A stretch of DNA of 38,535 nucleotides, from NCBI GenBank assembly GCA_902793315.1, contig CADBCT010000006.1, positions 1-38,535 on the forward strand. Direction: 5' to 3'. The notes beneath the pieces were generated by a model. That model searched no databases. It saw nothing but the letters and a program-made list of their open reading frames with translations, and was not told the DNA's origin. Positions 11,332 through 33,473 of this stretch are shown here, piece after piece. Position numbers and translations under genes: made by a program. Position 1 is the first letter of the stretch, and every line of letters starts with the position of its first letter. The stretch is from an uncultured Erysipelotrichaceae bacterium. GTDB lineage: Bacteria > Bacillota_I > Bacilli_A > RF39 > UBA660.

Positions 11332-11973
11332 TCACTTTATTTTATCTTTTTCAATTAAAAATAAATTATCATCTTTATAAAAACCATAGAATATATTTTC
11401 TAAATCTATTTTTTCTTTAGCAAGTTCTTCTTCTAACCAAATACTTGTCTTATTAATGGCTCTTAAAACATCTTTATTTACTTTACTATCGACAATTAAT
11501 GGTAATGGATAATCTCCTTCTGTTTGATCTTTTTTAAATATTGATAATTTACCACTCGTTTCTAAAATAGCATAATCTACTTCAGAAATTGATTTAATTG
11601 AATTTATTCTAAGTTGAGCTAACAAATCATCTAAATTATAACGTTGTTTTTTCATTTCTTTAAAATTAACTTTTCCTTTTTCAATAATAATAGATGGCTC
11701 TCCATCAATAATTTTTCTAAAAGTATAATTATGCAATGATACTCTAGCAAGCACTATTTGTAATAATACTAAGATAGTTATTGGTAATAAAGAAACCAAA
11801 ATACTTTTTTCATAGTTTTCAATAGAAATAGCTACCATCTCTGCAATAAAAATAGAAACTATAAAATCCATTATTGATAATTCACCTATTTCTCTCTTAC
11901 CCATTATTCGATAAAAGATTGCTACTATAGAATAAAAGAAAACACATCTAAATAAGATAATAAAATATTTCAT
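11332..11973 (-). CDS. DUF421 (YetF-like) membrane protein
   Basis: GKREIGELSIMDFIVSIFIAEMVA plus the C-terminal soluble domain are typical of YetF/YdfS-type proteins. Confidence 0.75.
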   Translation of the reverse strand: MKYFIILFRCVFFYSIVAIFYRIMGKREIGELSIMDFIVSIFIAEMVAISIENYEKSILVSLLPITILVLLQIVLARVSLHNYTFRKIIDGEPSIIIEKGKVNFKEMKKQRYNLDDLLAQLRINSIKSISEVDYAILETSGKLSIFKKDQTEGDYPLPLIVDSKVNKDVLRAINKTSIWLEEELAKEKIDLENIFYGFYKDDNLFLIEKDKIK

Positions 11974-24278: not shown

Positions 24279-24761
24279 TTAATTACTTGAATTATCTTTA
24301 AAATCACTTGGTAGTGCTACTATTTTAGCAATTATTAAAACAATCATTTTTTTATCAGGATCTAGTATACTAACTTCACACTTTCTATTTGCCGAAAGTA
24401 TCTCTTTGGTAATTATACTAATTTGCTTATTAGTCTCATCAAATATAGTAAAATGTAATCCCCTAGCATCTCCTTCTACTCTATAACCATTACTTAACGT
24501 ATAAAGATATTGTCCAACTTTTACTTCCATCTTAATAGTAAAAGCCAAAGTATTATTCATATAAACATCATATTTTGGCAAAAAATTTAATAATTTTCTT
24601 TCAATTTTAGCTACTTCATTACCATCAGTATCAATCATTGTTGCCTTTGGTGTGATTGTTATAATAGGACTAGAAAATCTATATTCTTCAATATTATTTT
24701 CGTTTTTTATAGAAAATCCACTATTTAAAGAAACTAAATCTTTTACAATATAATATTTCAT
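24279..24761 (-). CDS. LURP-one-related / YxjI family protein (tubby C-terminal-like fold)
   Basis: MKYYIVKDLVSLNSGFSIKNENN...AKIERKLLNFLPKYDVYMNN... closely follows the B. subtilis YxjI pattern (MK.YI.QK..SL.DKF.V.DE.G..). It has its own extended -10 (TGGTATAAT, 24780-24788). Confidence 0.75.
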   Translation of the reverse strand: MKYYIVKDLVSLNSGFSIKNENNIEEYRFSSPIITITPKATMIDTDGNEVAKIERKLLNFLPKYDVYMNNTLAFTIKMEVKVGQYLYTLSNGYRVEGDARGLHFTIFDETNKQISIITKEILSANRKCEVSILDPDKKMIVLIIAKIVALPSDFKDNSSN

Positions 24762-24809
24762 CTTATCAACTCCCTATTTATTATACCACAATAAAAAAAA
24801 GTCTATAAA

Positions 24810-25577
24810 CTATTGTCTATAAACTTTCTTTAATATCTTTACATAGTCATTAGGTAAATTTGAGATTGTATCTTTCTTTTGAATATCATTCATTCCATAT
24901 AAACTTTCGGTAACTGATCCAACTATACAACAATTAGTATCTGTATCGCCACCCATTAATAATGTTTTTCTAATTGAATCTTCAAATGAATTAGAATTAT
25001 ATATAGCATAAAGACAATTACTTAATGTTTCCTTACATGTTGTATTAAACTTTTTAAATGGTTCATATTTTACTAATAAATTTAATTTTCTAAATACTTC
25101 TTCTTTAGATAATCCATTTCTAAAATAAAATATCATTAAAGCTATAATAGTTGCTGAATCAATTGCTTCTTTTGAATTATGTGAAGGAATTGTTACTAAT
25201 TTGGCATTTTCGATTACTTCTTCTTCACTATTGAATAAATATCCTGTTGGTGAAACTCTCATCATAGCTCCATTTCCAATACTGTCATTTCTTCCAATTC
25301 CTTTTGCCCATTTTATTGTTCCAGGTGAAAAAGGATTCTTAAAGTATGGTTTGAAATTAGGTTTATAATCAATATTATCTAATATATATTTTCTTAAAGT
25401 TTGTTCATAATCTTTATTATTAATAATCGCATCTATCACTGCAATAGTTTCAATAGTATCATCACTATAAAATGAATTGGGTAATATTAATTCTTTAGGA
25501 TTAATACTCGTTATTTCTTTTAATTGTTCAAATTCATATATGCTTCCTGCTTTATCTCCATATATAGCTCCTAACAT
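24810..25577 (-). CDS. ADP-ribosylglycohydrolase family protein
   Basis: GAIYGDKAGS.YEF, GNGAMMRVSP and GGDTDTNCCIVGS are ARH/DraG family signatures. Confidence 0.85.
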   Translation of the reverse strand: MLGAIYGDKAGSIYEFEQLKEITSINPKELILPNSFYSDDTIETIAVIDAIINNKDYEQTLRKYILDNIDYKPNFKPYFKNPFSPGTIKWAKGIGRNDSIGNGAMMRVSPTGYLFNSEEEVIENAKLVTIPSHNSKEAIDSATIIALMIFYFRNGLSKEEVFRKLNLLVKYEPFKKFNTTCKETLSNCLYAIYNSNSFEDSIRKTLLMGGDTDTNCCIVGSVTESLYGMNDIQKKDTISNLPNDYVKILKKVYRQ

Positions 25578-25603
25578 ACTATCACCACCTATTTAGACTA
25601 TTA

Positions 25604-26110
25604 TTATTTTACCAATTTCTTATTCTCAACAACTGGTCTTATCATAGAAGTAGTATCAATTATTTCTGCATTATCTATTTTTCTTATAATTTTATATCTA
25701 GAATTTTCATCAAATAAATAAGAAAATAGTTCTTCTTCAGTAGGAATTATATCGTAAAATAATATTTCATGATCAAAAGAAGATGATTCTATTTTTTCTT
25801 GACCATTTTTAATACCATTACCTGATTCTAAGATAATTTCATATGCACTATTCTCACAATATAGACATTTTAAAATATCACATGTTTCATTTGAACAATC
25901 ATTTAGCTGTTTATATCTAAATAGTGCCCTAGCTTTTATTTCATTGCTATTAACATCCATCAAATCACTCAATGTACCAGCGTTTGGATGAGATACCATA
26001 TAATATAAAACCTGTTTTTTCCTAGATTCCCTAGATTTTTTTCTTTCCAATTCCTCAAGTTCTAATCTTATTTTTTCTAAGTATTGCTCCCATGTTAAAT
26101 CATTATCCAT
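25604..26110 (-). CDS. hypothetical protein (N-terminal coiled coil, central Cys cluster), first gene of a two-gene unit with the ARH
   Basis: 168 aa with a GGGGAGAAAG SD. It lies 26 nt upstream of the ARH gene. I recognise no motif. Confidence 0.55.
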   Translation of the reverse strand: MDNDLTWEQYLEKIRLELEELERKKSRESRKKQVLYYMVSHPNAGTLSDLMDVNSNEIKARALFRYKQLNDCSNETCDILKCLYCENSAYEIILESGNGIKNGQEKIESSSFDHEILFYDIIPTEEELFSYLFDENSRYKIIRKIDNAEIIDTTSMIRPVVENKKLVK

Positions 26111-26145
26111 AAACTTTCTCCCCTAATTGCTTTTATACGACGCAT

Positions 26146-26174
26146 ATTATAACACATAAGTTAATTTTTCACAA
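26146..26174 (-). promoter_or_regulatory. promoter for the 168-aa ORF/ARH pair
   Basis: -35 TTGTGA (26169-26174), a 17-nt spacer and an extended -10 TGTTATAAT (-10 hexamer at 26146-26151). Confidence 0.55.
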
Positions 26175-26213
26175 CGTTTTTGTTTTTATGAATTTTCCTA
26201 TAAACAATAACAA

Positions 26214-26243
26214 TTAATAAAAAAGATTACAAAATGCAATCTT
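26214..26243 (-). terminator. rho-independent terminator after the 72-aa gene
   Basis: The minus strand reads AAGATTGC-ATTT-TGTAATCTT (one mismatch) followed by TTTTTATT. Confidence 0.5.
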
Positions 26244-26302
26244 CTTTTGAACAGGTTTTATTTTTTTTATATACTTATATGATTTACAATTAGATATTAC
26301 TA

Positions 26303-26521
26303 TCATAGATCTGGAAAAAGTTTTTTTAAAACTTCAATTGTTTCTTCTAAAAACTCATTTTCAAATAAAGGGATGTTCTTGTCTATTTCAAAATCATAAG
26401 AACTATCTTTAATACTATCTAAATACATCACAAAATTCTCGGGAATACTTTTTTTAAGTTCACTATCTAAATATTTTATTATTTCTAGTAGTTCGACAGC
26501 ACTCATTGAACTAACATTCAT
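26303..26521 (-). CDS. small acidic hypothetical protein (72 aa), coupled to the transglutaminase-like gene
   Basis: The ATG at 26521 lies 1 nt after the upstream TAA. The SD AGGAGGAAA sits inside the upstream gene's last codons. The start in the track (26566) is an unsupported extension. Confidence 0.6.
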   Translation of the reverse strand: MNVSSMSAVELLEIIKYLDSELKKSIPENFVMYLDSIKDSSYDFEIDKNIPLFENEFLEETIEVLKKLFPDL

Positions 26522-26522
26522 A

Positions 26523-27929
26523 TTATTTCCTCCTTGGTATTGCATCTTCAATTCTTTCCGCAACACTCTTCTTTATTTTCAATGCATATTTTTTAAACAA
26601 ATCACGTAAAGATTGAGCATGAATTACATAATTGCTATTCCATTCTATAACTCTATTTGTAGAATCATTTATTTCTTGTCTATCATAATTTTCACATTGA
26701 AATTGACTTATGATATCCTTGTAGTCATCATGCCCAAATGTTTCATTTGAAGTTAAAAAATCACTAGATTCAGCTAATGAATGAATCATTCCTCTTTGCA
26801 TTCTTTCAACTATCCATGTATTATCAATAAAATATTGTTTACCCTCTATTGTAACAAGATTAAAAGAATGTCCTTCAAAATCATTATCCATTAGACTATC
26901 ATCAGATGAATCCAATTTTTCACATTCTATTCCTAATGAATCAAGTATATACTTTGTAAATCCCGCAAAGTGTCTACACACTCCTTCTCCTCTTGAAATA
27001 AATTGAGTCAAATTAATATCTTCTGTATCTTGATTTGCTTTAGATTTTTCATACATGTCATAATCATATTTAAAATAATTAATCATAAACAATGTAACAT
27101 AAGTTATAATATCCAATTCACTTGCATCTGAAGGAATATGTGATTTTATTAATTCAATATTTTTTTCTAAATCATATAATTGTTCAAAGGAATCATATTT
27201 TATATCTCTGAATTGTATATTTAATTTTTTATTACTCGAATTTTGTACCGATGTATTTTGAACAATTAATTCTCTAGCGTTCTTAGGATACTTTTCATTA
27301 AACAGATTATCATCTACCACAATTAATATTTCATCTTCAGGTATATATGGAATAATACTATCCAAATTTTGTAATGACTCAGCATCTTTAATCTCAATTC
27401 TAAATCTTATGTTTTTTATTCTTTTACATAATTCAACTATTTTTTCGTATGTATTTGAATCTATTCTATTAATTATAACTACAGGTGATGAATCATCACT
27501 AAATGTAAATTTTCTTACTAGTTCATGTATCATGTCTATATCCATCCATCCATAGCAAGCAAACTGAAGATTTACATGTGATAATTTAAATAGTAAATTC
27601 ATTTTTTCCATGTCTAAATTATTACTAATCATAATTTCAACAAAAACATTATCATCTAATTGATTAATTATATCTACTGTTTCTTCATCGAAGCTATTTA
27701 ACAGTACTCTTAAATAATATGGTTTTTCAAATAATTCTGGATTTAATTGATACACTTTTATCACATCATAAACATCATTAACAGATTTTATATCATCACA
27801 AGGAATACAACAATCATATAGAATACTAATTATTTGTATTTCATCTTTTGTGGGAATTGAAATAGGCAATATAATAGTTTCTTTATTTTGATCTTGTTCA
27901 ATAATTTCTTTTAACTCTTTAAAAGTCAT
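26523..27929 (-). CDS. cytoplasmic protein with a C-terminal transglutaminase-like cysteine protease core
   Basis: GEGVCRHFAGF (Cys), EGHSFN (His) and FIDNTW (Asp) form the transglutaminase-core triad in the usual order. The N-terminal ~300 aa is unassigned. A GGAGGA SD precedes the ATG at 27929 (MTFKELKEII), and there is no signal peptide. Confidence 0.7.
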   Translation of the reverse strand: MTFKELKEIIEQDQNKETIILPISIPTKDEIQIISILYDCCIPCDDIKSVNDVYDVIKVYQLNPELFEKPYYLRVLLNSFDEETVDIINQLDDNVFVEIMISNNLDMEKMNLLFKLSHVNLQFACYGWMDIDMIHELVRKFTFSDDSSPVVIINRIDSNTYEKIVELCKRIKNIRFRIEIKDAESLQNLDSIIPYIPEDEILIVVDDNLFNEKYPKNARELIVQNTSVQNSSNKKLNIQFRDIKYDSFEQLYDLEKNIELIKSHIPSDASELDIITYVTLFMINYFKYDYDMYEKSKANQDTEDINLTQFISRGEGVCRHFAGFTKYILDSLGIECEKLDSSDDSLMDNDFEGHSFNLVTIEGKQYFIDNTWIVERMQRGMIHSLAESSDFLTSNETFGHDDYKDIISQFQCENYDRQEINDSTNRVIEWNSNYVIHAQSLRDLFKKYALKIKKSVAERIEDAIPRRK

Positions 27930-27948
27930 ATTACATCCTCCTATATGC

Positions 27949-27976
27949 ATTATATCACACAAATTTCATTTTCTAA
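27949..27976 (-). promoter_or_regulatory. promoter for the transglutaminase-like operon
   Basis: -35 TTAGAA (27971-27976), a 16-nt spacer and an extended -10 TGATATAAT (-10 hexamer at 27949-27954). Confidence 0.5.
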
Positions 27977-27986
27977 CTACACTCCT

Positions 27987-28112
27987 TTCTTTTTCTAAAT
28001 AATTATATGATCCACAATTAAAGATAACTTTATCTACTCTAAAATTATTTACTAAAGTAAGGGATTTTCCCATATGATCACTATCCCCACGTGGTGGCAT
28101 ACGTTTATGCAT
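27987..28112 (-). pseudogene. displaced comEC 3'-end remnant (copy 3), truncated after 42 codons
   Basis: It reads MHKRMPPRGDSDHMGKSLTLVNNFRVDKVIFNCGSYNYLEKE. From GDSDH onward, 31 of 34 aa are identical to resident ComEC, and the nucleotide sequence is near-identical to 31902..32000. Homology stops abruptly at 27987. Confidence 0.85.
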
Positions 28113-28123
28113 ATGAATAAAAT

Positions 28124-28153
28124 AATAAAAAAACTATCTTTCAAGATAGTTTT
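28124..28153 (-). terminator. rho-independent terminator after the HD hydrolase gene
   Basis: The minus strand reads AAACTATCTT..AAGATAGTTT followed by TTTTTTATTATTTT. Confidence 0.6.
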
Positions 28154-28697
28154 AAGATTCAAAATATTCATAAACAATTTCATTATATCTTTTTAATAAT
28201 TGATTGTTACTTATTCTTGAATTAAATAATTTCTTTAATTCAAGATAATACCATTTTAACTCATCAAAATTACTTGCCTCAGTAACAAGAAAATCTTTAC
28301 CATATATTTTATATTGTTCATAATCAGAAATAAGATTTTGTAACTTATCTGCAATTTCTACAATAAGTATATCATCATTTATTTTTTCTAGTCGATTTAG
28401 AAATTCTTTTTTTCTTTCAACATAATTTGCAATATTTTGATTTTCACTTAATACTAATACACCATCAGCTATTTTTTTACCATATCTATTCAATAAATCT
28501 TCATACGTATATTTTGTATCTTCAATAATATCATGTAAATAGCCGATATATACAATTTCTTCATCGCATCCTAAATTTTTTAGCATATTTCCAACCATTA
28601 TACTGTGAAATGCCAAACTTATATCTTCTTTTGCTCTTTTTAAATTATTAAAAGCCATAAAAACAAAATGAATTATATCTTCTTCCAATTCATACAT
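28152..28697 (-). CDS. stand-alone RelA/SpoT-type HD hydrolase (small alarmone hydrolase-like)
   Basis: HSIMVGNMLKNLGCDEEIVYIGYLHDIIEDTKYTYEDLLNRYGKKIADGVLVLSE follows the RSH hydrolase pattern H.I.V...L....D......LHD..EDT......FG......V. The ATG at 28697 follows the SD GGAAGTGA. Confidence 0.75.
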   Translation of the reverse strand: MYELEEDIIHFVFMAFNNLKRAKEDISLAFHSIMVGNMLKNLGCDEEIVYIGYLHDIIEDTKYTYEDLLNRYGKKIADGVLVLSENQNIANYVERKKEFLNRLEKINDDILIVEIADKLQNLISDYEQYKIYGKDFLVTEASNFDELKWYYLELKKLFNSRISNNQLLKRYNEIVYEYFES

Positions 28698-28723
28698 TAT
28701 TATCACTTCCTATAAATATTATA

Positions 28724-29631
28724 TCATACTAATTCATATTCTCTGGCAATTATCCTATCATCTGAACAATATTTAATTACATATTCATTATCCTGTTTAC
28801 AAATGATAATTCCTACTGTGTCATTTTCTTCAATAGTTTTAATATTTTTATTAATATAATTCATATATGTCATAATTTGACCTGTATGTTCTTTCTTTAG
28901 TTCAGTTACTTTTAATTCGACAACTACATAACATTTATATTTAATGTTATACAAAAGTAAATCTATATAATTATACTTACTACCTATTTTTATTTTATAT
29001 TCATTACCAACATAAGTAAAACCAATACCTAACTGTCTTAAAAATTCATCAATATTATTTAATAAAGCTTGCTTTAATGCATATTCTGATAAATTTTCTT
29101 TTGACATATTTGATCTTATGACAATTGGATTTGGAATTAAATCATCAACTTTCAATTCTTTTGATTCAATAAGTTTAGTTTTTGTTTCATTACTTAATCT
29201 ATCATATTCCTTGCTTTTTATTCGTTCTTGTAATTGTCTTCTTGTCAAATTATTTCTTTCACATATATCAATATAATACATGATTGCATCAATATTTTTG
29301 ACTATTAACAATTCTCTAAAATGACTCCAACTTAATTTGGAACCCATTGGGTTCCATTTTATACTTGAGAAAACTTCATAAAATTGCCTCATACATAAAA
29401 TTGCCTCATATATCTAAGATTTCTTTCATTATATTTTTTACCAACTTCAATTATTAAGCTTTCAGAGTATTATTTAATTATATTTTTACCATATTCTTTT
29501 CCTGCTTCACTTAATAGTTTTCCAGTTTCAAAATATACACTAACTTTATGTCTATCTTTTGAATAATCTTTTGCTCTGTCGTATATTTCACTTTTTATTA
29601 ATCTCTCTTTTATCTCATTATAATAATTCAT
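28724..29631 (-). pseudogene. YhcG/DUF1016-type PD-(D/E)xK nuclease gene, disrupted
   Basis: The N-terminal piece (29473..29631, MNYYNEIKERL...GKEYGKNIIK) ends at an in-frame TAA (29470-29472). The frame continues as YSESLIIEVGKKYNERNLRYMRQFYV and is then shifted by a perfect 17-nt tandem duplication. The remaining ORF 28724..29392 (MRQFYEVF...KLSWSHFRELL...VVELK) is the nuclease body. Confidence 0.8.
29377..29410. repeat. perfect 17-bp tandem duplication (cataaaattgcctcata x2) causing the frameshift in the YhcG-like gene
   Basis: 29377-29393 equals 29394-29410 exactly. Both units encode MRQFY. Removing one unit fuses the two reading frames. Confidence 0.95.
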
Positions 29632-29643
29632 GCCTACTCCTTT

Positions 29644-30234
29644 CTATGGACTACAAGTCTCAATCATTAATTTACTATTTTTAATCTTAAACACAATACT
29701 TCCATCTTGATCTGTTCTATATATTTTAGAATTTTTCAAGTTATCTAACACTTCTTTATTAGGATGACTAAATTTATTATCTTTACCTACACTAATAATA
29801 GAATACTTAGGATTAATAGTATTGATAAACTCTTCACTACTACTTGTCTTAGAACCATGATGTCCTACTTTTAAAACATCTATTTGAGGTAAATCATATT
29901 CTTTTAATATTTCTTTTTCAGTATCAATTGATGCATCCCCCATAAAGAGAAATTTATAATTATTTAACTCCATATAAATAACATTACTATTATCATTCTC
30001 ATCATTAAAATCTTTTGTTTGTAAAAAATAGAATTTATTATTATCTAAGTTTAATTCATTAATACAAGTATAGTATTTAATCCTTTTTTTCTTTAGTACT
30101 TTAATTAATTCTTTTTCTAAATAATTGTATTCTCCACAATTAAATATAACTTTATCTACTTTAAAGTTTTCTACTATATTAATAGCTTCTCCCATATGAT
30201 CATAATCTCCATGTGGTGACATACGTTTATGCAT
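29644..30234 (-). pseudogene. displaced comEC 3'-end copy (copy 2): intact 196-codon ORF covering only the distal part of the metallo-beta-lactamase domain
   Basis: After the foreign leader MHKRMSPH it aligns without gaps to the last 188 aa of resident ComEC (141/188 identical by hand count), ending in the same IETCSP*. No SD precedes its ATG, and the N-terminal strands of the MBL fold are missing. Confidence 0.8.
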
Positions 30235-30235
30235 A

Positions 30236-30260
30236 CGAAAAAATGCCTTAATTAGGCATT
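30236..30260 (-). terminator. rho-independent terminator after the 102-aa gene
   Basis: The minus strand reads AATGCCT-AATTA-AGGCATT followed by TTTTT. Confidence 0.6.
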
Positions 30261-30560
30261 GTCTTCTTTATATGAATATGATTTAACACGTTTTAAAATT
30301 TTTAAATCTTCACTTAACAATCTATCAGTTGGGGGATATTTAGTATTAATTTGATTAAAGTACTCAGCAATAGATAATCCTGTTTCTCTATCTACAAAGT
30401 AACCATTTTCAGTAGCAAAACCTTGTGTGGCCTTTCTTAATACTCCAATTGGCTCCATTGGAAAGATAGCATAGTGCCCTTTTTTTGACATATAAATGCA
30501 ATTATCATGTAATAATGCAGCACAAACAATTCTTCCATACTTCTCATAATCAATACTCAT
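30252..30560 (-). CDS. hypothetical protein (102 aa)
   Basis: AGAGGTGAGATA SD followed by ATG. I recognise no motif with confidence. Confidence 0.55.
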   Translation of the reverse strand: MSIDYEKYGRIVCAALLHDNCIYMSKKGHYAIFPMEPIGVLRKATQGFATENGYFVDRETGLSIAEYFNQINTKYPPTDRLLSEDLKILKRVKSYSYKEDNA

Positions 30561-30600
30561 TATCTCACCTCTTTAGTTGATTATTATATCACATTTTTAT

Positions 30601-31422
30601 CTATTCTTTTAGTTTCATTACTTCTTTTTCTAATTCTTTTAAACTTCTTTTGGGTGTTGGTAAATTTTCTGGCATTGTTCCGTCTAGTCTTTCAATACTA
30701 TTTCTTACTTCTTTGCCTACTTCATAATGAACAGAATTTGCAGTATATTCATTATCTACATTATCTCTTTTTAATTTAGCATCTGTTTGAGCAATCCTAA
30801 ATATATTATCTGCAAGTTCTTCACTACCCATATTATCTAATATATCTTCTCTATATCTTAATTTCTTTCTTTTAAATATATCATCAGCGGTTTCACCATT
30901 ATAAAGTCCTTTATATCCAGCATTATGAAATCTAGCTAAGTCTTTTACTCCACTTTTAACTGCTGTTTTATTTAAATTATAATTACCTTTTCTTGCTTGA
31001 TTTCTTCTATATAGACGTTTCTCATCTTCAGTTAGTTCATTATACTCTTTTTCACTTAATTCTTGTTTTCTTGTTTGGATTGCAAAATATGTTTGTCCAA
31101 GAGCCACTACTGGTTTTGAAGAATCAGAGTTTTGAACTATTAAATAACATGCATATCTAGTTAATCCATAATCTTTTAGCTTTCTTTTTGCATTTGAACC
31201 TATATTCACCATTACGTCCATTTGGGCGAAATGGTTATCAACATTTTGACCACTCTTTTCACAGGAAATCATTGCTTTTTTTATTGAAGGTAAAAACTTT
31301 CTATATTCACCATATTCTAAAATTTTTCCTAATTCTCTTGCTAGCCAGTACTCATTATTTTCTTCATCTATATGTTTAATATCTTCAAATACTTTTTCAG
31401 TATATTCTTTTATTTCATTCAT
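30601..31422 (-). CDS. dinD: DNA damage-inducible protein D homolog
   Basis: It appears collinear over its full length with E. coli DinD as I recall it, e.g. ARELGKILEY.EYRKF.P, GSNAKR.LKD..L.RYACYLIVQN.D..KPV.A.GQTYFAIQTR.QE and LPTP..S.K.LE. Confidence 0.85.
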   Translation of the reverse strand: MNEIKEYTEKVFEDIKHIDEENNEYWLARELGKILEYGEYRKFLPSIKKAMISCEKSGQNVDNHFAQMDVMVNIGSNAKRKLKDYGLTRYACYLIVQNSDSSKPVVALGQTYFAIQTRKQELSEKEYNELTEDEKRLYRRNQARKGNYNLNKTAVKSGVKDLARFHNAGYKGLYNGETADDIFKRKKLRYREDILDNMGSEELADNIFRIAQTDAKLKRDNVDNEYTANSVHYEVGKEVRNSIERLDGTMPENLPTPKRSLKELEKEVMKLKE

Positions 31423-31426
31423 TTTA

Positions 31427-32006
31427 ATTCTCCTTTCTATGGACTACATGTCTCTATTTTTAATTTGTTATTTTTGATCTTAAACATAATACTACCATTC
31501 TGATCTGTCCTATATATTTTTGAATCTTCTAGATTATCTAATACTTCTTTATTTGGATGACCATACCTATTATTCTTGCCAACACTAATAATGGAATATT
31601 TAGGATTGATTTCATTTATAAATTCAATACCACTACTTGTTTTACTTCCATGATGTCCAACTTTTAATACATCTATATCTGGTAAGTTATATTTATTCAT
31701 TATTTCTTTTTCAGTGGTAATAGATGCATCTCCCATAAGCATAAATTTATAACCATTTAAATCTGTATAAATAACATTACTATTATCATTTTCATTATCA
31801 TAAAGTTTTGTTTGTAAAAAATATAACTTGTTATTATCTATTTTTATTTTTTCTATACACGAATAATACTTTATTTTCTTTTTATCTAAATCTTCAATTA
31901 ATTCTTTTTCTAAATAATTACATGATCCACAATTAAAGATAACTTTATCTACTTTAAAATTATTGACTAAAGTAAGGGATTCTCCCATATGATCACTATC
32001 ACCATG
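31427..32006 (-). repeat. resident copy (copy 1) of the ~580-nt comEC 3' block (includes the stop codon and following SD)
   Basis: It is homologous to 29634..30213 and, in part, to 27987..28090. Homology ends at the codons for the H-G-D-x-D-H motif on one side and just after TAGAAAGGAG on the other. Confidence 0.85.
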
Positions 32007-33473
32007 ACTTAGAATTAAATAATTAATTTTTTGAACACCTAAACTTTTAAGAGCTGGATTAATAGTATTAAAAAATATTACTCCATTTGAATTATCTTTA
32101 CCACCAGTGTCAATCAATATAGCTTTGTTCCTATAATGAATTAAAATTGAATCTCCTTGTCCTACATCAATTATTTCCATATAAGTTGAGTAGTCACAAT
32201 ACGGAATCAAATAATGAATTAGTAATAAAGAAAAGAACATATATATAAATATTTTCTTAGGTTTATAAAGATAAATAAATACTAATAAAAAATAAATTAT
32301 ATAAATATAGATAGGTAATCTTTTAAAAATTAATTTACCAAAATTAATATTACTAAAGAACAAAGATAATCTTTCTACTCCAATAATTAAATAATTATAT
32401 ATTGGTAATAATGGTTTTATAATTAATACTAATAAACTCATTGGAAAGATTATTATACTAATTATAGGAATAAAGATTAAATTATAAAAAATACTTAAGA
32501 TATTTATTTCATAAAAGTTATATAAAGTAATTGGTAGACTTACTAATAATGAAATAATAGATGTTTTAAAAATAGTTTTAAAATAATTTCCTTTAAGATA
32601 ATCAGACATTTTAATTAAACTAAAACTAATTGAATAAGAATATAAATAACCAATATCATAGACATAATTAGGATTAATAATTAATGAAATAGAAAATACT
32701 ATTAAAAATAAATTAGTTGGTTTAATATAAAAATATTTAATTTGATTAATAGAAAAAATAATATAAAAAAGAACAGCTCTTACTATAGATGGAGATAACC
32801 CCACTAACAATAAATAGATTATTAAAATACTACTAGTTATTATAAATAGATTCATTTCATTCAATTTAAATCTTTTTAATAACCTATTAATAATCATAAT
32901 TAATAAAGCTGTATGCATACCACTGATACAAAACAAATGACTAATACCATTACTTTGATATGATCTTTTAACACTACTATCCAAATAACTTTTATCCCCT
33001 AAAACAAATGTATAGAGATATGGATTATCACTTAAATTATTAATTAGTTTTTGTTTTAAAAAATAATAAATATTTCTATTATTTCTTATTTTTTCTATAG
33101 AAGATACTTCTACCAAATAAAAGATATTTCTTCTTTTTAAATACTTTTGATAATTAAATAAATATTCAGTTGTATTACTACTAGGTAATTTGAAGATACC
33201 CATTATTTTTACTTTATCACCTAATTTTAAATTAGAATAATCTAATTGATTTAAATAATAAGAAGCAATTATTATTTCTTTATTTTTAACATATATTGTT
33301 ACTTTATCATTCTTAACAATAATTTTATTAATAGTACCAATAAAAGTAGTAGATGATTCATTATAATTCGATATTACAGGAATAGATAATCTATAAATAG
33401 TTATTAATATGACTAAGATAGTTACTATAAAATAAACATAATCACACAGTAATATTTTCCTTAATCTGAGCAA
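31437..33473 (-). CDS. comEC: DNA internalization competence protein ComEC/Rec2 (N-terminal OB region, polytopic channel domain, C-terminal metallo-beta-lactamase domain)
   Basis: 678 aa with many TM helices and GISHLFCISGMHTALL. The MBL motifs are IDVGQGDS, SHGDSDH and VGHHGS. A TTG start at 33473 lies 8 nt after AGGGGA, and the gene overlaps the end of comEA. Confidence 0.92.
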   Translation of the reverse strand: MLRLRKILLCDYVYFIVTILVILITIYRLSIPVISNYNESSTTFIGTINKIIVKNDKVTIYVKNKEIIIASYYLNQLDYSNLKLGDKVKIMGIFKLPSSNTTEYLFNYQKYLKRRNIFYLVEVSSIEKIRNNRNIYYFLKQKLINNLSDNPYLYTFVLGDKSYLDSSVKRSYQSNGISHLFCISGMHTALLIMIINRLLKRFKLNEMNLFIITSSILIIYLLLVGLSPSIVRAVLFYIIFSINQIKYFYIKPTNLFLIVFSISLIINPNYVYDIGYLYSYSISFSLIKMSDYLKGNYFKTIFKTSIISLLVSLPITLYNFYEINILSIFYNLIFIPIISIIIFPMSLLVLIIKPLLPIYNYLIIGVERLSLFFSNINFGKLIFKRLPIYIYIIYFLLVFIYLYKPKKIFIYMFFSLLLIHYLIPYCDYSTYMEIIDVGQGDSILIHYRNKAILIDTGGKDNSNGVIFFNTINPALKSLGVQKINYLILSHGDSDHMGESLTLVNNFKVDKVIFNCGSCNYLEKELIEDLDKKKIKYYSCIEKIKIDNNKLYFLQTKLYDNENDNSNVIYTDLNGYKFMLMGDASITTEKEIMNKYNLPDIDVLKVGHHGSKTSSGIEFINEINPKYSIISVGKNNRYGHPNKEVLDNLEDSKIYRTDQNGSIMFKIKNNKLKIETCSP

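Follow-up and report, generated by a model that had tools for sequence, protein, structure and literature searches.

The window analyzed here is a 38.5-kb stretch of DNA (38,535 nucleotides [nt]; 26% G+C) from contig CADBCT010000006.1 of an uncultured Erysipelotrichaceae bacterium, in which comEC, the gene for the DNA uptake channel, is followed by two displaced copies of its own 3' end with unrelated cargo genes between them. Comparison with related loci and with phages argues that the comEC 3' end is a mobile part that circulates horizontally between species. The explanation that best fits the observations as a whole, and that we consider probable, is an array of cassettes without a recombinase of their own, whose arms would be half attP sites of phages with a large serine recombinase (LSR) and whose target would be an attB within comEC. 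From the junction sequences, we also think it rather likely that serine integrase recombination was the origin of the junctions between arm and comEC end. That a phage LSR moves the cassettes, in cis or in trans, is a further step that we infer.

Three comEC 3' ends in the window

The product of the comEC open reading frame (ORF) scored 263 bits against the NCBIfam ComEC_Rec2 equivalog. We refer to the replaceable 3' module of the gene as R (Table 1). An initial annotation, made from the letters of the window, had located three copies of this end, and all three were found, in direct orientation on the minus strand. Copy B had been described as an uninterrupted 196-codon ORF with 141 of 188 residues identical to the resident copy A; our alignment agrees, at 142 of 189 amino acids (75%; BLASTP E=2e-106) and 482 of 609 nt (79%). 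Copy C is indeed a remnant with 31 of 34 residues identical to A (91%; 98 of 103 nt, or 95%, by blastn; 94% across the first 105 nt), but its homology covers 105 nt and not the 126 nt, up to position 28112, that had been assigned to it. The truncation is a later deletion or insertion. In both B and C, homology to A begins at the same codon, the CAT (His) of the HGDxDH motif, as annotated. A and C are lineage-native-like alleles (HGDSDH), 89 to 94% identical to each other and to the closest relative (locus L017), and B alone is foreign. Hence, the newest cassette, A with dinD, probably came from a close relative. The earlier view of the copies as different alleles and not a local duplication was upheld.

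Could the repeats be an artifact of assembly, which the initial annotation had named as a possible refutation? The arrangement is identical in four independent assemblies (L007, L008, L009, and L012). We conclude that it is not an artifact.

What had been overlooked is a hairpin followed by a conserved 26-nt arm in front of each displaced copy. B and C share the sequence TTC(G/A)TATGCATAAACGTATG(T/C)CACCA immediately 5' of their comEC homology, and the resident gene lacks it. A search of the window that allowed up to 3 mismatches gave 2 matches against 0 expected, and before each of the two arms stands a hairpin with a T-run. These arms, which we call type a1, provide an in-frame ATG (30232-30234 for copy B) and the MHKRM(S/P)P start of displaced-copy ORFs. 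Arm 1 with the CA|TGG that follows it would form an attR-type junction, where CA is the crossover dinucleotide. In the resident attB-like site, the His490 codon supplies this CA (32005..32006). At copy C, the crossover codon is CGT, so that the central dinucleotide is CG and not CA (28090-28091, minus strand); by its sequence, this old attR-type site should be inert for a serine integrase. Searching the whole window against Rfam at gathering thresholds returned no RNA family, so the conserved arm and hairpin are not a known RNA. A role of the arm as promoter only was rejected, as promoter-like sites were no more frequent than expected in a generic scan (39 found, 38.8 expected), and a dif/Xer-like or integron-like site was dropped after the arm matched a serine integrase attP.

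The cargo labels of the initial annotation stood. Between A and B lie dinD, whose 273-aa product matched the DinD equivalog NF008573 at 348 bits and the PADLOC defense candidate PDC-S13, and a 102-aa ORF. Between B and C lie a yhcG-type nuclease gene and the gene for a 184-aa protein with an HD/SpoT-type domain. The former had been called decayed: judged against an intact 296-aa copy in L010, it is freshly broken by a CAA-to-TAA change at 29470..29472 and by a 17-nt tandem duplication within 29377..29410, which inactivate it in the window. Each cargo set is closed by a terminator, as had been claimed. A terminator scan of the window called 3 sites against 0.4 expected and included the hairpin of cassette 1; that of cassette 2 escapes the scan owing to the scan's G+C rule. 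This anatomy and its exact junctions are established directly.

Table 1. Features of the comEC locus in the window, from higher to lower positions
Feature	Position	Strand	Remarks
Intact comEC	31437..33473	minus	678 aa; DUF4131, Competence, and metallo-beta-lactamase domains (Pfam)
attB-like resident site, ...TTAATTCTAAGT|CA|TGGTGATAGTGATCAT	31977..32032	minus	Identity step; prophage attL/attR junctions at this codon
R copy A (resident last 189 codons + stop; replaceable 3' module)	31437..32006	minus	
dinD (DNA damage-inducible protein D, Bro-N domain)	30601..31422	minus	Cassette 1 cargo
102-aa ORF	30252..30560	minus	Cassette 1 cargo; precomputed Pfam T4_Y16D; phrog_839
Terminator-like hairpin + T-run	30238..30260 (hairpin 30242..30260)	minus	Closes cassette 1; called by terminator scan
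Arm 1 (type a1), TTCGTATGCATAAACGTATGTCACCA	30214..30239	minus	Putative P half-site of a serine integrase attP
R copy B (displaced full-length 3' end)	29644..30213	minus	ORF 29644..30234 (196 codons, open) begins inside the arm
YhcG/DUF1016 PD-(D/E)XK nuclease gene	28724..29631	minus	Cassette 2 cargo; PADLOC PDC-S02
HD-domain (SpoT-like) hydrolase gene, 184 aa	28152..28706	minus	Cassette 2 cargo
AT-rich hairpin + T-run	28127..28153	minus	Closes cassette 2
Arm 2 (type a1), TTCATATGCATAAACGTATGCCACCA	28092..28117	minus	Next crossover codon CGT, not CAT
R copy C (35-codon remnant, 105 nt, of a displaced lineage-native-like 3' end)	~27987..28091	minus	
Accessory DNA without counterpart in the closest relative L017	26303..27962	minus	479-aa transglutaminase-like (DUF553) ORF and 87-aa ORF

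The comEC 3' end and its cargo in relatives

The lineage consists of uncultured low-G+C Bacilli from ruminant and human gut metagenomes. Of 54 loci, each representing one species and extending at least 3 kb beyond comEC, 41 contained at least one displaced comEC 3' copy. Such loci hold between one and six of these copies, always co-oriented, and in one metagenomic lineage seven comEC 3' copies stand within 20 kb. Every 5'-complete displaced copy begins at the CAT of HGDxDH, after a hairpin and T-run (often ...TTTTTCTTTG) and an arm. Two homologous arm types precede these copies, a1 (TTCGTATGCATAAACGTATGTCACCA) and a2 (TTCGACTTACTTTTTGACAATCACCA); the species-level loci examined hold 28 a1 arms, the window's two included, and 16 a2 arms. 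Stand-alone proteins of about 196 aa, nearly all starting with MHKR(M/I)SPHGD, made up more than 100 clusters among the best 120 protein search matches. Hence, the arm-R junction is conserved far outside this genome. Nearly all full-length displaced copies have kept an open reading frame. In the window and in 58 relatives, the resident comEC is uninterrupted over its full length. The genes that flank comEC are comEA, a DHH-family gene, and ftsW on the upstream side and holA, dnaI, or dnaG on the downstream side.

The cargo is small and diverse: YhcG, DinD, HD, NUDIX, Fic, His_Phos, GTP cyclohydrolase I, deaminase, and MFS proteins, among others. Directly after the 79 full-length R copies, YhcG is found 36 times and DinD 19 times. 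These two genes are linked to the comEC copy upstream of them, which is the resident copy in some species and a displaced one in others. The alignment with related comEC loci that the initial annotation had called for thus yielded alternative cargo sets and also a locus free of stacking: the closest relative, L017, has no displaced copies and none of the window's cargo. We found no LSR by tblastn in the window or in 92 related loci (L001-L092), no recombinase in the precomputed Pfam annotation of L001-L012, L093, and L094, and no integrase, resolvase, or transposase by Pfam among 64 representative cargo proteins, at least in the 25 top families listed. Fragments of structural phage genes or integrases were likewise not found in these 64. 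A Mob_Pre relaxase in a cassette of L001 was considered as the recombinase and rejected, as it occurs in just 1 of the 64 cargo families. It belongs to a large cassette that follows a copy of only part of R (L001-L006:11433-19316) and that also carries genes for a helix-turn-helix regulator, GTP cyclohydrolase I, a deaminase, a methyltransferase, and a PNPOx protein; this may be an integrated mobilizable plasmid-like element.

That copy follows a third arm, a3 (...TATGTAYTAACTACTCA(A/G)TACCA|GT|TGG), which precedes copies of only the last ~50 codons and marks a second integration site at about codon 140 of the 189-codon R. Such sites were seen at L001:3071-3124 and 11433-11591 and in L033, L060, L061, L072, and L076. 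The a3 arm is similar to the P arm found in L118, a distant LSR phage (integrase 37% identical); one scan of IMG/VR for an a3-type attP gave nothing or chance matches. In L027 (11492-17407), the comEC end is twice interrupted by a 220-aa minus-strand ORF, around which codons 32 to 108 are duplicated, possibly an insertion sequence or another element inserted within R.

An alignment of 58 full-length ComEC proteins (1,653 pairs) separates the two halves of the protein. Mean pairwise identity per column is 0.2 to 0.6 up to residue 489 and at least 0.85 from His490 onward; averaged over the parts, it is 0.36 for the N-terminal part and 0.83 for the C-terminal part. N- and C-terminal identities are uncorrelated over these pairs (Spearman -0.07), and in the closest genome pairs the C termini are less similar than the N termini (93% N-terminal versus 88% C-terminal; 78% versus 75%). 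Codon identity at identical residues is 0.58 in the N-terminal part, where codon usage predicts 0.57, and 0.70 in the C-terminal part, where it predicts 0.61; in 97% of pairs, the C-terminal part has the higher value. Synonymous sites are less saturated in the C-terminal part.

Nine arrays end in a still-open copy just 42 to 68% identical to the pool. The more closely their hosts are related by the N-terminal part, the more similar are these divergent terminal copies (rho 0.67, p=8e-6); resident C termini show no such trend (rho 0.15). Because they track the species phylogeny, the terminal copies look like displaced native ends. Their divergence from the pool begins 4 to 7 codons after the arm, so that joining is confined to at most 18 nt. 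The identity step, the decoupling of the two halves, and the native-like terminal copies support the view that cassettes bring a replacement 3' end, and the horizontal circulation of R is established directly. With arrays in most species, cargo that travels with the comEC copy upstream of it, and a close relative without a stack, the replacement mechanism proposed in the initial annotation is supported.

Large serine recombinase phages at the comEC site

The a2 arm is present in IMG/VR phage contigs, where it is the P half of the attP of phages L097 and L099. This attP is a 56-bp imperfect palindrome centered on CA, ATTCGACTTACTTTTTGACAATCACCA|CA|TGGAGGTATGTGGTTAGTAAGTCGAAT, whose outer 12 nt form a perfect inverted repeat. 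It lies 24 nt downstream of the stop codon of a 473-aa LSR gene, beside a CI-type repressor gene. The L097 LSR has Resolvase (PF00239; 1e-32), Recombinase (PF07508), and Zn_ribbon_recom (PF13408) domains. The layout of attP next to int is repeated in five further phages, and related LSR phages (65 to 93% identity) have an attP of the same design, all with a CCA|CA|TGG center. The a2 arms match the L097 P half-site at 24 to 29 of 29 positions, seven of them exactly. The a1 arms, both window arms included, match the P half-site of phage P0169/L100 at 19 to 22 of 28 positions and agree with a2 in length, position, and flanks. The array arm-R junctions have the form of an attR (P-O-B'). The right end of the LSR phages, an endolysin gene, a hairpin, and the P arm, has the same order of terminator and arm as the cassettes.

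Integrated forms of these phages were found at the same codon. At attL in L098, L104, and L107, the 5' part of comEC (coding for ...YLI(I/L)T) gives way to CA|TGG, P', and int. Because the phage P' half is no comEC end, the phages truncate ComEC at HGD. P0169 (identical integrase, 185 collection blocks) sits at the His codon in at least six chromosomal backgrounds, with attL likewise present in L128-L133, where the prophages adjoin truncated comEC and comEA. We found attR through R ORFs whose N termini translate the phage arm; a small phage protein, tried as another way to the attR end of prophages, pointed only to unrelated phages that have different integrases. In L138-L140, phage sequence 99.8% identical to that of the free phage extends as far as the crossover and then passes into R, which is followed by a gene for a 278-aa cargo protein and an a3-type copy. 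Hence, LSR phages integrate into hosts that already hold arrays. The phage attP, attL, and attR sites are established directly. "No recombinase in sight," as the initial annotation had put it, is true for the window and the 92 related loci, but the arms appear to be half att sites of phage LSRs, which takes the mystery out of it.

P0169 is also found inside unrelated small metallo-beta-lactamase (MBL)-fold genes, at the equivalent ...(I/L)T|HG(H/D) motif (L134:11436-11600; L135/L136:11436-11606); these genes adjoin clpP or rhuM-uvrB-uvrA. Its integrase thus seems to target MBL motif 2 coding sequence and not comEC as such. At a2 junctions (L001:7480-7530 and others), the TTGACA of the arm and the comEC codons GAT-TAT-GAT 16 nt on form a promoter-like site, TTGACA-16-TATGAT, that exists solely at attR-type junctions and not in the phage attP. 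Among the arm types, only a2 yields a good match. It is a possibility that the a1 start codon or the a2 hybrid promoter lets lysogens express the split-off C-terminal half of ComEC. The comEC-targeting phages further encode a 352-aa reverse transcriptase (RVT_1) beside tail genes (L100:10140-11198; L103:9844-10902; L137:14141-15199), which looks like a diversity-generating retroelement.

Cassette movement, rival explanations, and known systems

A cassette consists of R (570 nt, beginning at the His codon of HGDxDH and ending with the stop), one or a few cargo genes in the same orientation, a terminator, and an arm of 26 to 29 nt. The arm would be the P half of the attP of a temperate LSR phage, and attB would be the HGD-coding stretch of comEC with the crossover at the CA of CAT. 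A phage alone splits comEC, whereas a cassette joined at the site would fuse its own R in frame and so regenerate both comEC and attB. The structure is what would be expected if P-CA-R recombined with the resident B-CA-R: the former 3' end would be displaced and would stay downstream behind the arm as an attR-type junction (P-CA-R). Repeated arrival would stack cassettes, with the oldest, native end last. Movement could take a cis route, in which a prophage in the resident attB leaves via an attR farther downstream and takes R, cargo, and arm along; in a new host, the phage would integrate and then excise via the internal attR, and the cassette would stay behind. This route would need only the canonical reactions, attP with attB and attL with attR. 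In a trans route, the LSR would act on a cassette circle. Homologous recombination between R copies would then, probably, shuffle alleles and cargo. That cassettes hitchhike in this way on LSR prophages, which would pick up and deposit comEC end, cargo, and half attP via an alternative attR in a site-specific form of specialized transduction, is an idea that we put forward tentatively, as one that may well prove wrong.

Several observations weigh against this explanation. In the window itself, the resident copy A is native-like and not foreign. R alleles are not structured by the cargo downstream of them (identity 0.828 within groups versus 0.822 between), which implies frequent homologous recombination between copies on top of any site-specific step. 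Three scans of IMG/VR for a phage with an exact a1 attP gave nothing or chance matches; the best agreement with an a1 arm, that of phage P0169/L100, is 20 to 22 of 28 positions. No phage genome with an R copy or a cassette was found, either among about six attP-form contigs or in two IMG/VR scans for the comEC end: the one with a single protein found none, and the one with an alignment found only two unrelated phage-encoded secreted MBL proteins. There was also no circular cassette contig; short contigs with many cluster members had no terminal overlaps, which is weak evidence. To our knowledge, canonical phage LSRs do not recombine attR with attB, so the trans route requires relaxed pairing rules. 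Such rules are known for Ccr, the recombinase of the staphylococcal cassette chromosome (SCC). Finally, the cassette explanation gives no origin for the first unit of R, cargo, and arm, which it leaves unexplained.

Perhaps homologous recombination alone built the arrays? One or a few ancient phage scars would have made the first arm-R junctions, RecA-dependent exchange across the 570-nt R would have spread the cassettes, by natural transformation or by Campbell-type integration of circles, and the arms would be passive. Any two R copies share about 82% identity, whatever their cargo or context; the arrays hold no recombinase; and the host has competence genes, while flanking homology would move whole arrays within species. 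All of this would suit such a process. However, highly divergent native 3' ends (42 to 59% amino acid identity) are joined to arms at exactly the same nucleotide, with divergence setting in within 18 nt at most and not with crossovers spread along R. Two sites and three arm types are also at odds with it, as are a2 arms that stay identical at 29 of 29 positions to the attP half-site of a living phage while the neighboring sequence varies, and the sharp identity step at His490 in resident genes. We regard homologous recombination alone as unlikely. It is less likely still that the units are decayed prophages, each the two ends left of a full-size phage or island that had its own comEC 3' end and integrase and lost its interior. 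The shared architecture of terminator and arm at the right end of LSR phages would fit, as would the PHROG relatives of DinD (Bro-N) and YhcG. Yet no R copy is present in any of the LSR phage contigs, the phage P' half abuts int, no structural or integrase fragments were found in the 64 representative cargo proteins, and the same small cargo sets are found intact in different species.

A homing type of spread, in which nuclease-like first genes (YhcG, possibly DinD) cut naive comEC and repair co-converts the adjacent 3' end, could explain why YhcG and DinD so often directly follow R and why many genomes hold pool-type R with YhcG and no displaced copy. It would yield neither tandem displaced copies nor phage-derived arms, however, and its co-conversion tracts should fade on both sides of the cut, whereas the observed boundary is a step at the LSR crossover. 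Moreover, YhcG and DinD match candidate defense families and not known homing enzymes. We consider homing very improbable. Duplication or misassembly can also give direct repeats, and an ancient local duplication might have been inherited vertically with a C terminus conserved by function. The same arrangement in four independent assemblies and an architecture found in dozens of species speak against both duplication and artifact. Duplication is further contradicted by C termini of close relatives that are less alike than their N termini, decoupled N- and C-terminal identities, excess synonymous identity limited to R, and a close relative, L017, that lacks displaced copies. We give this explanation next to no credence.

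Among known systems, composite islands of SCC and psiSCC elements at rlmH (orfX) in staphylococci, together with the enterococcal cassette chromosome, combine LSRs with stacked cassettes (PMC11470126; bioRxiv 10.1101/336396; PMC6222049). Ccr mobilizes tandem defense cassettes, recombinase-less ones included (PMC11470126; bioRxiv 10.1101/336396). By our comparison, these islands are the best-fitting analog. As at comEC, LSRs are involved, and a conserved gene, whose 3' part holds attB, is kept intact by the incoming element; tandem cassettes are each bounded by a gene-end repeat and are rich in phage defense genes, and many have no recombinase gene and depend for their movement on one located elsewhere. 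The repeat at SCC is a brief integration site sequence, a few codons long, whereas the comEC cassettes replace a module of 189 codons, half a metallo-beta-lactamase domain. Also different from SCC are the target, a DNA uptake channel gene with one protein half homogenized across species, and the phage origin of the sites. The recombinases here are phage integrases beside a CI repressor gene, unlike the cassette-borne ccr of SCC; none was found on a cassette in 92 loci. Mobilization has been shown experimentally for SCC, while the comEC cassettes are known here from sequence.

Phi1207.3/Tn1207.3, Phi10394.4, and Tn1207.1 (celB) are temperate elements of streptococci with serine recombinases, integrated at a specific dinucleotide inside the comEC coding sequence (PMC4260502). 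The LSR phages described here likewise integrate within the comEC coding sequence. The streptococcal elements differ in that they interrupt comEC, with no comEC-restoring cassettes or displaced 3' ends described, and in their dinucleotide (GA versus CA here) and host clade. Accretion and mobilization are also known for cis-mobilizable elements (CIMEs) and integrative and conjugative elements (ICEs) at the 3' end of fda in Streptococcus thermophilus, and islands that target tRNA, tmRNA, or icd carry a replacement gene end. The likeness lies in att-flanked, integrase-less elements in tandem with, and co-excisable with, an autonomous element, and in an element that supplies the displaced gene end. 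These systems use tyrosine recombinases and replace short segments (tens of nt; 165 nt for icd), and we know of no report that any of them homogenizes a protein domain across an order. Integrons share with the comEC arrays co-oriented, mostly single-gene cassettes that have no recombinase of their own, each end in a recombination site, and enter in promoter-proximal position. In contrast, the comEC arrays lack IntI (a tyrosine integrase), attI, and attC hairpins; a terminator and a serine integrase half-site stand between their cassettes, and the repeat is a coding gene end plus this half-site. The initial annotation had drawn comparisons with tRNA islands and with rhs/cdiA loci; of these, the former fits better. 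The resemblance to rhs/cdiA is formal only, as the displaced modules are comEC MBL half-domains and the cargo (DinD, YhcG, HD, NUDIX, Fic, etc.) includes no toxin/immunity pairs. The literature searched yielded no account of comEC ends in tandem or of cassettes that restore comEC.

The cassette explanation would account for the piling up of recombinase-less cassettes at a single place in the chromosome across a large group of gut bacteria that are uncultured and have small genomes, and it would connect this place with a family of temperate phages that are very common. It would also explain why the two halves of comEC have different evolutionary histories, because one half would belong to mobile elements. 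Mobile-element traffic would be tied to a gene of natural transformation: phages that split comEC would block DNA uptake, and cassettes would restore both uptake and the phage landing site. Because the two commonest cargo genes match candidate phage defense families, the array may be a defense hotspot right at a phage attachment site. The 56-bp attP, the comEC attB, and the compact integrases are short, well defined, and directly testable. Should the hitchhiking idea be true, comEC would be an integron-like, cross-species platform for accessory genes, candidate antiphage genes included, and the last 189 codons of an essential competence protein would be kept as one gene pool across an order-level clade.

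Beyond the array, the window from remnant C to a conserved dnaI-like gene (24279-27962) encodes the 479-aa transglutaminase-like protein, the 87-aa and a 168-aa ORF, an ADP-ribosylglycohydrolase, and a LURP-one-related protein. Of these genes, L017 shares only the 168-aa ORF and the ADP-ribosylglycohydrolase.

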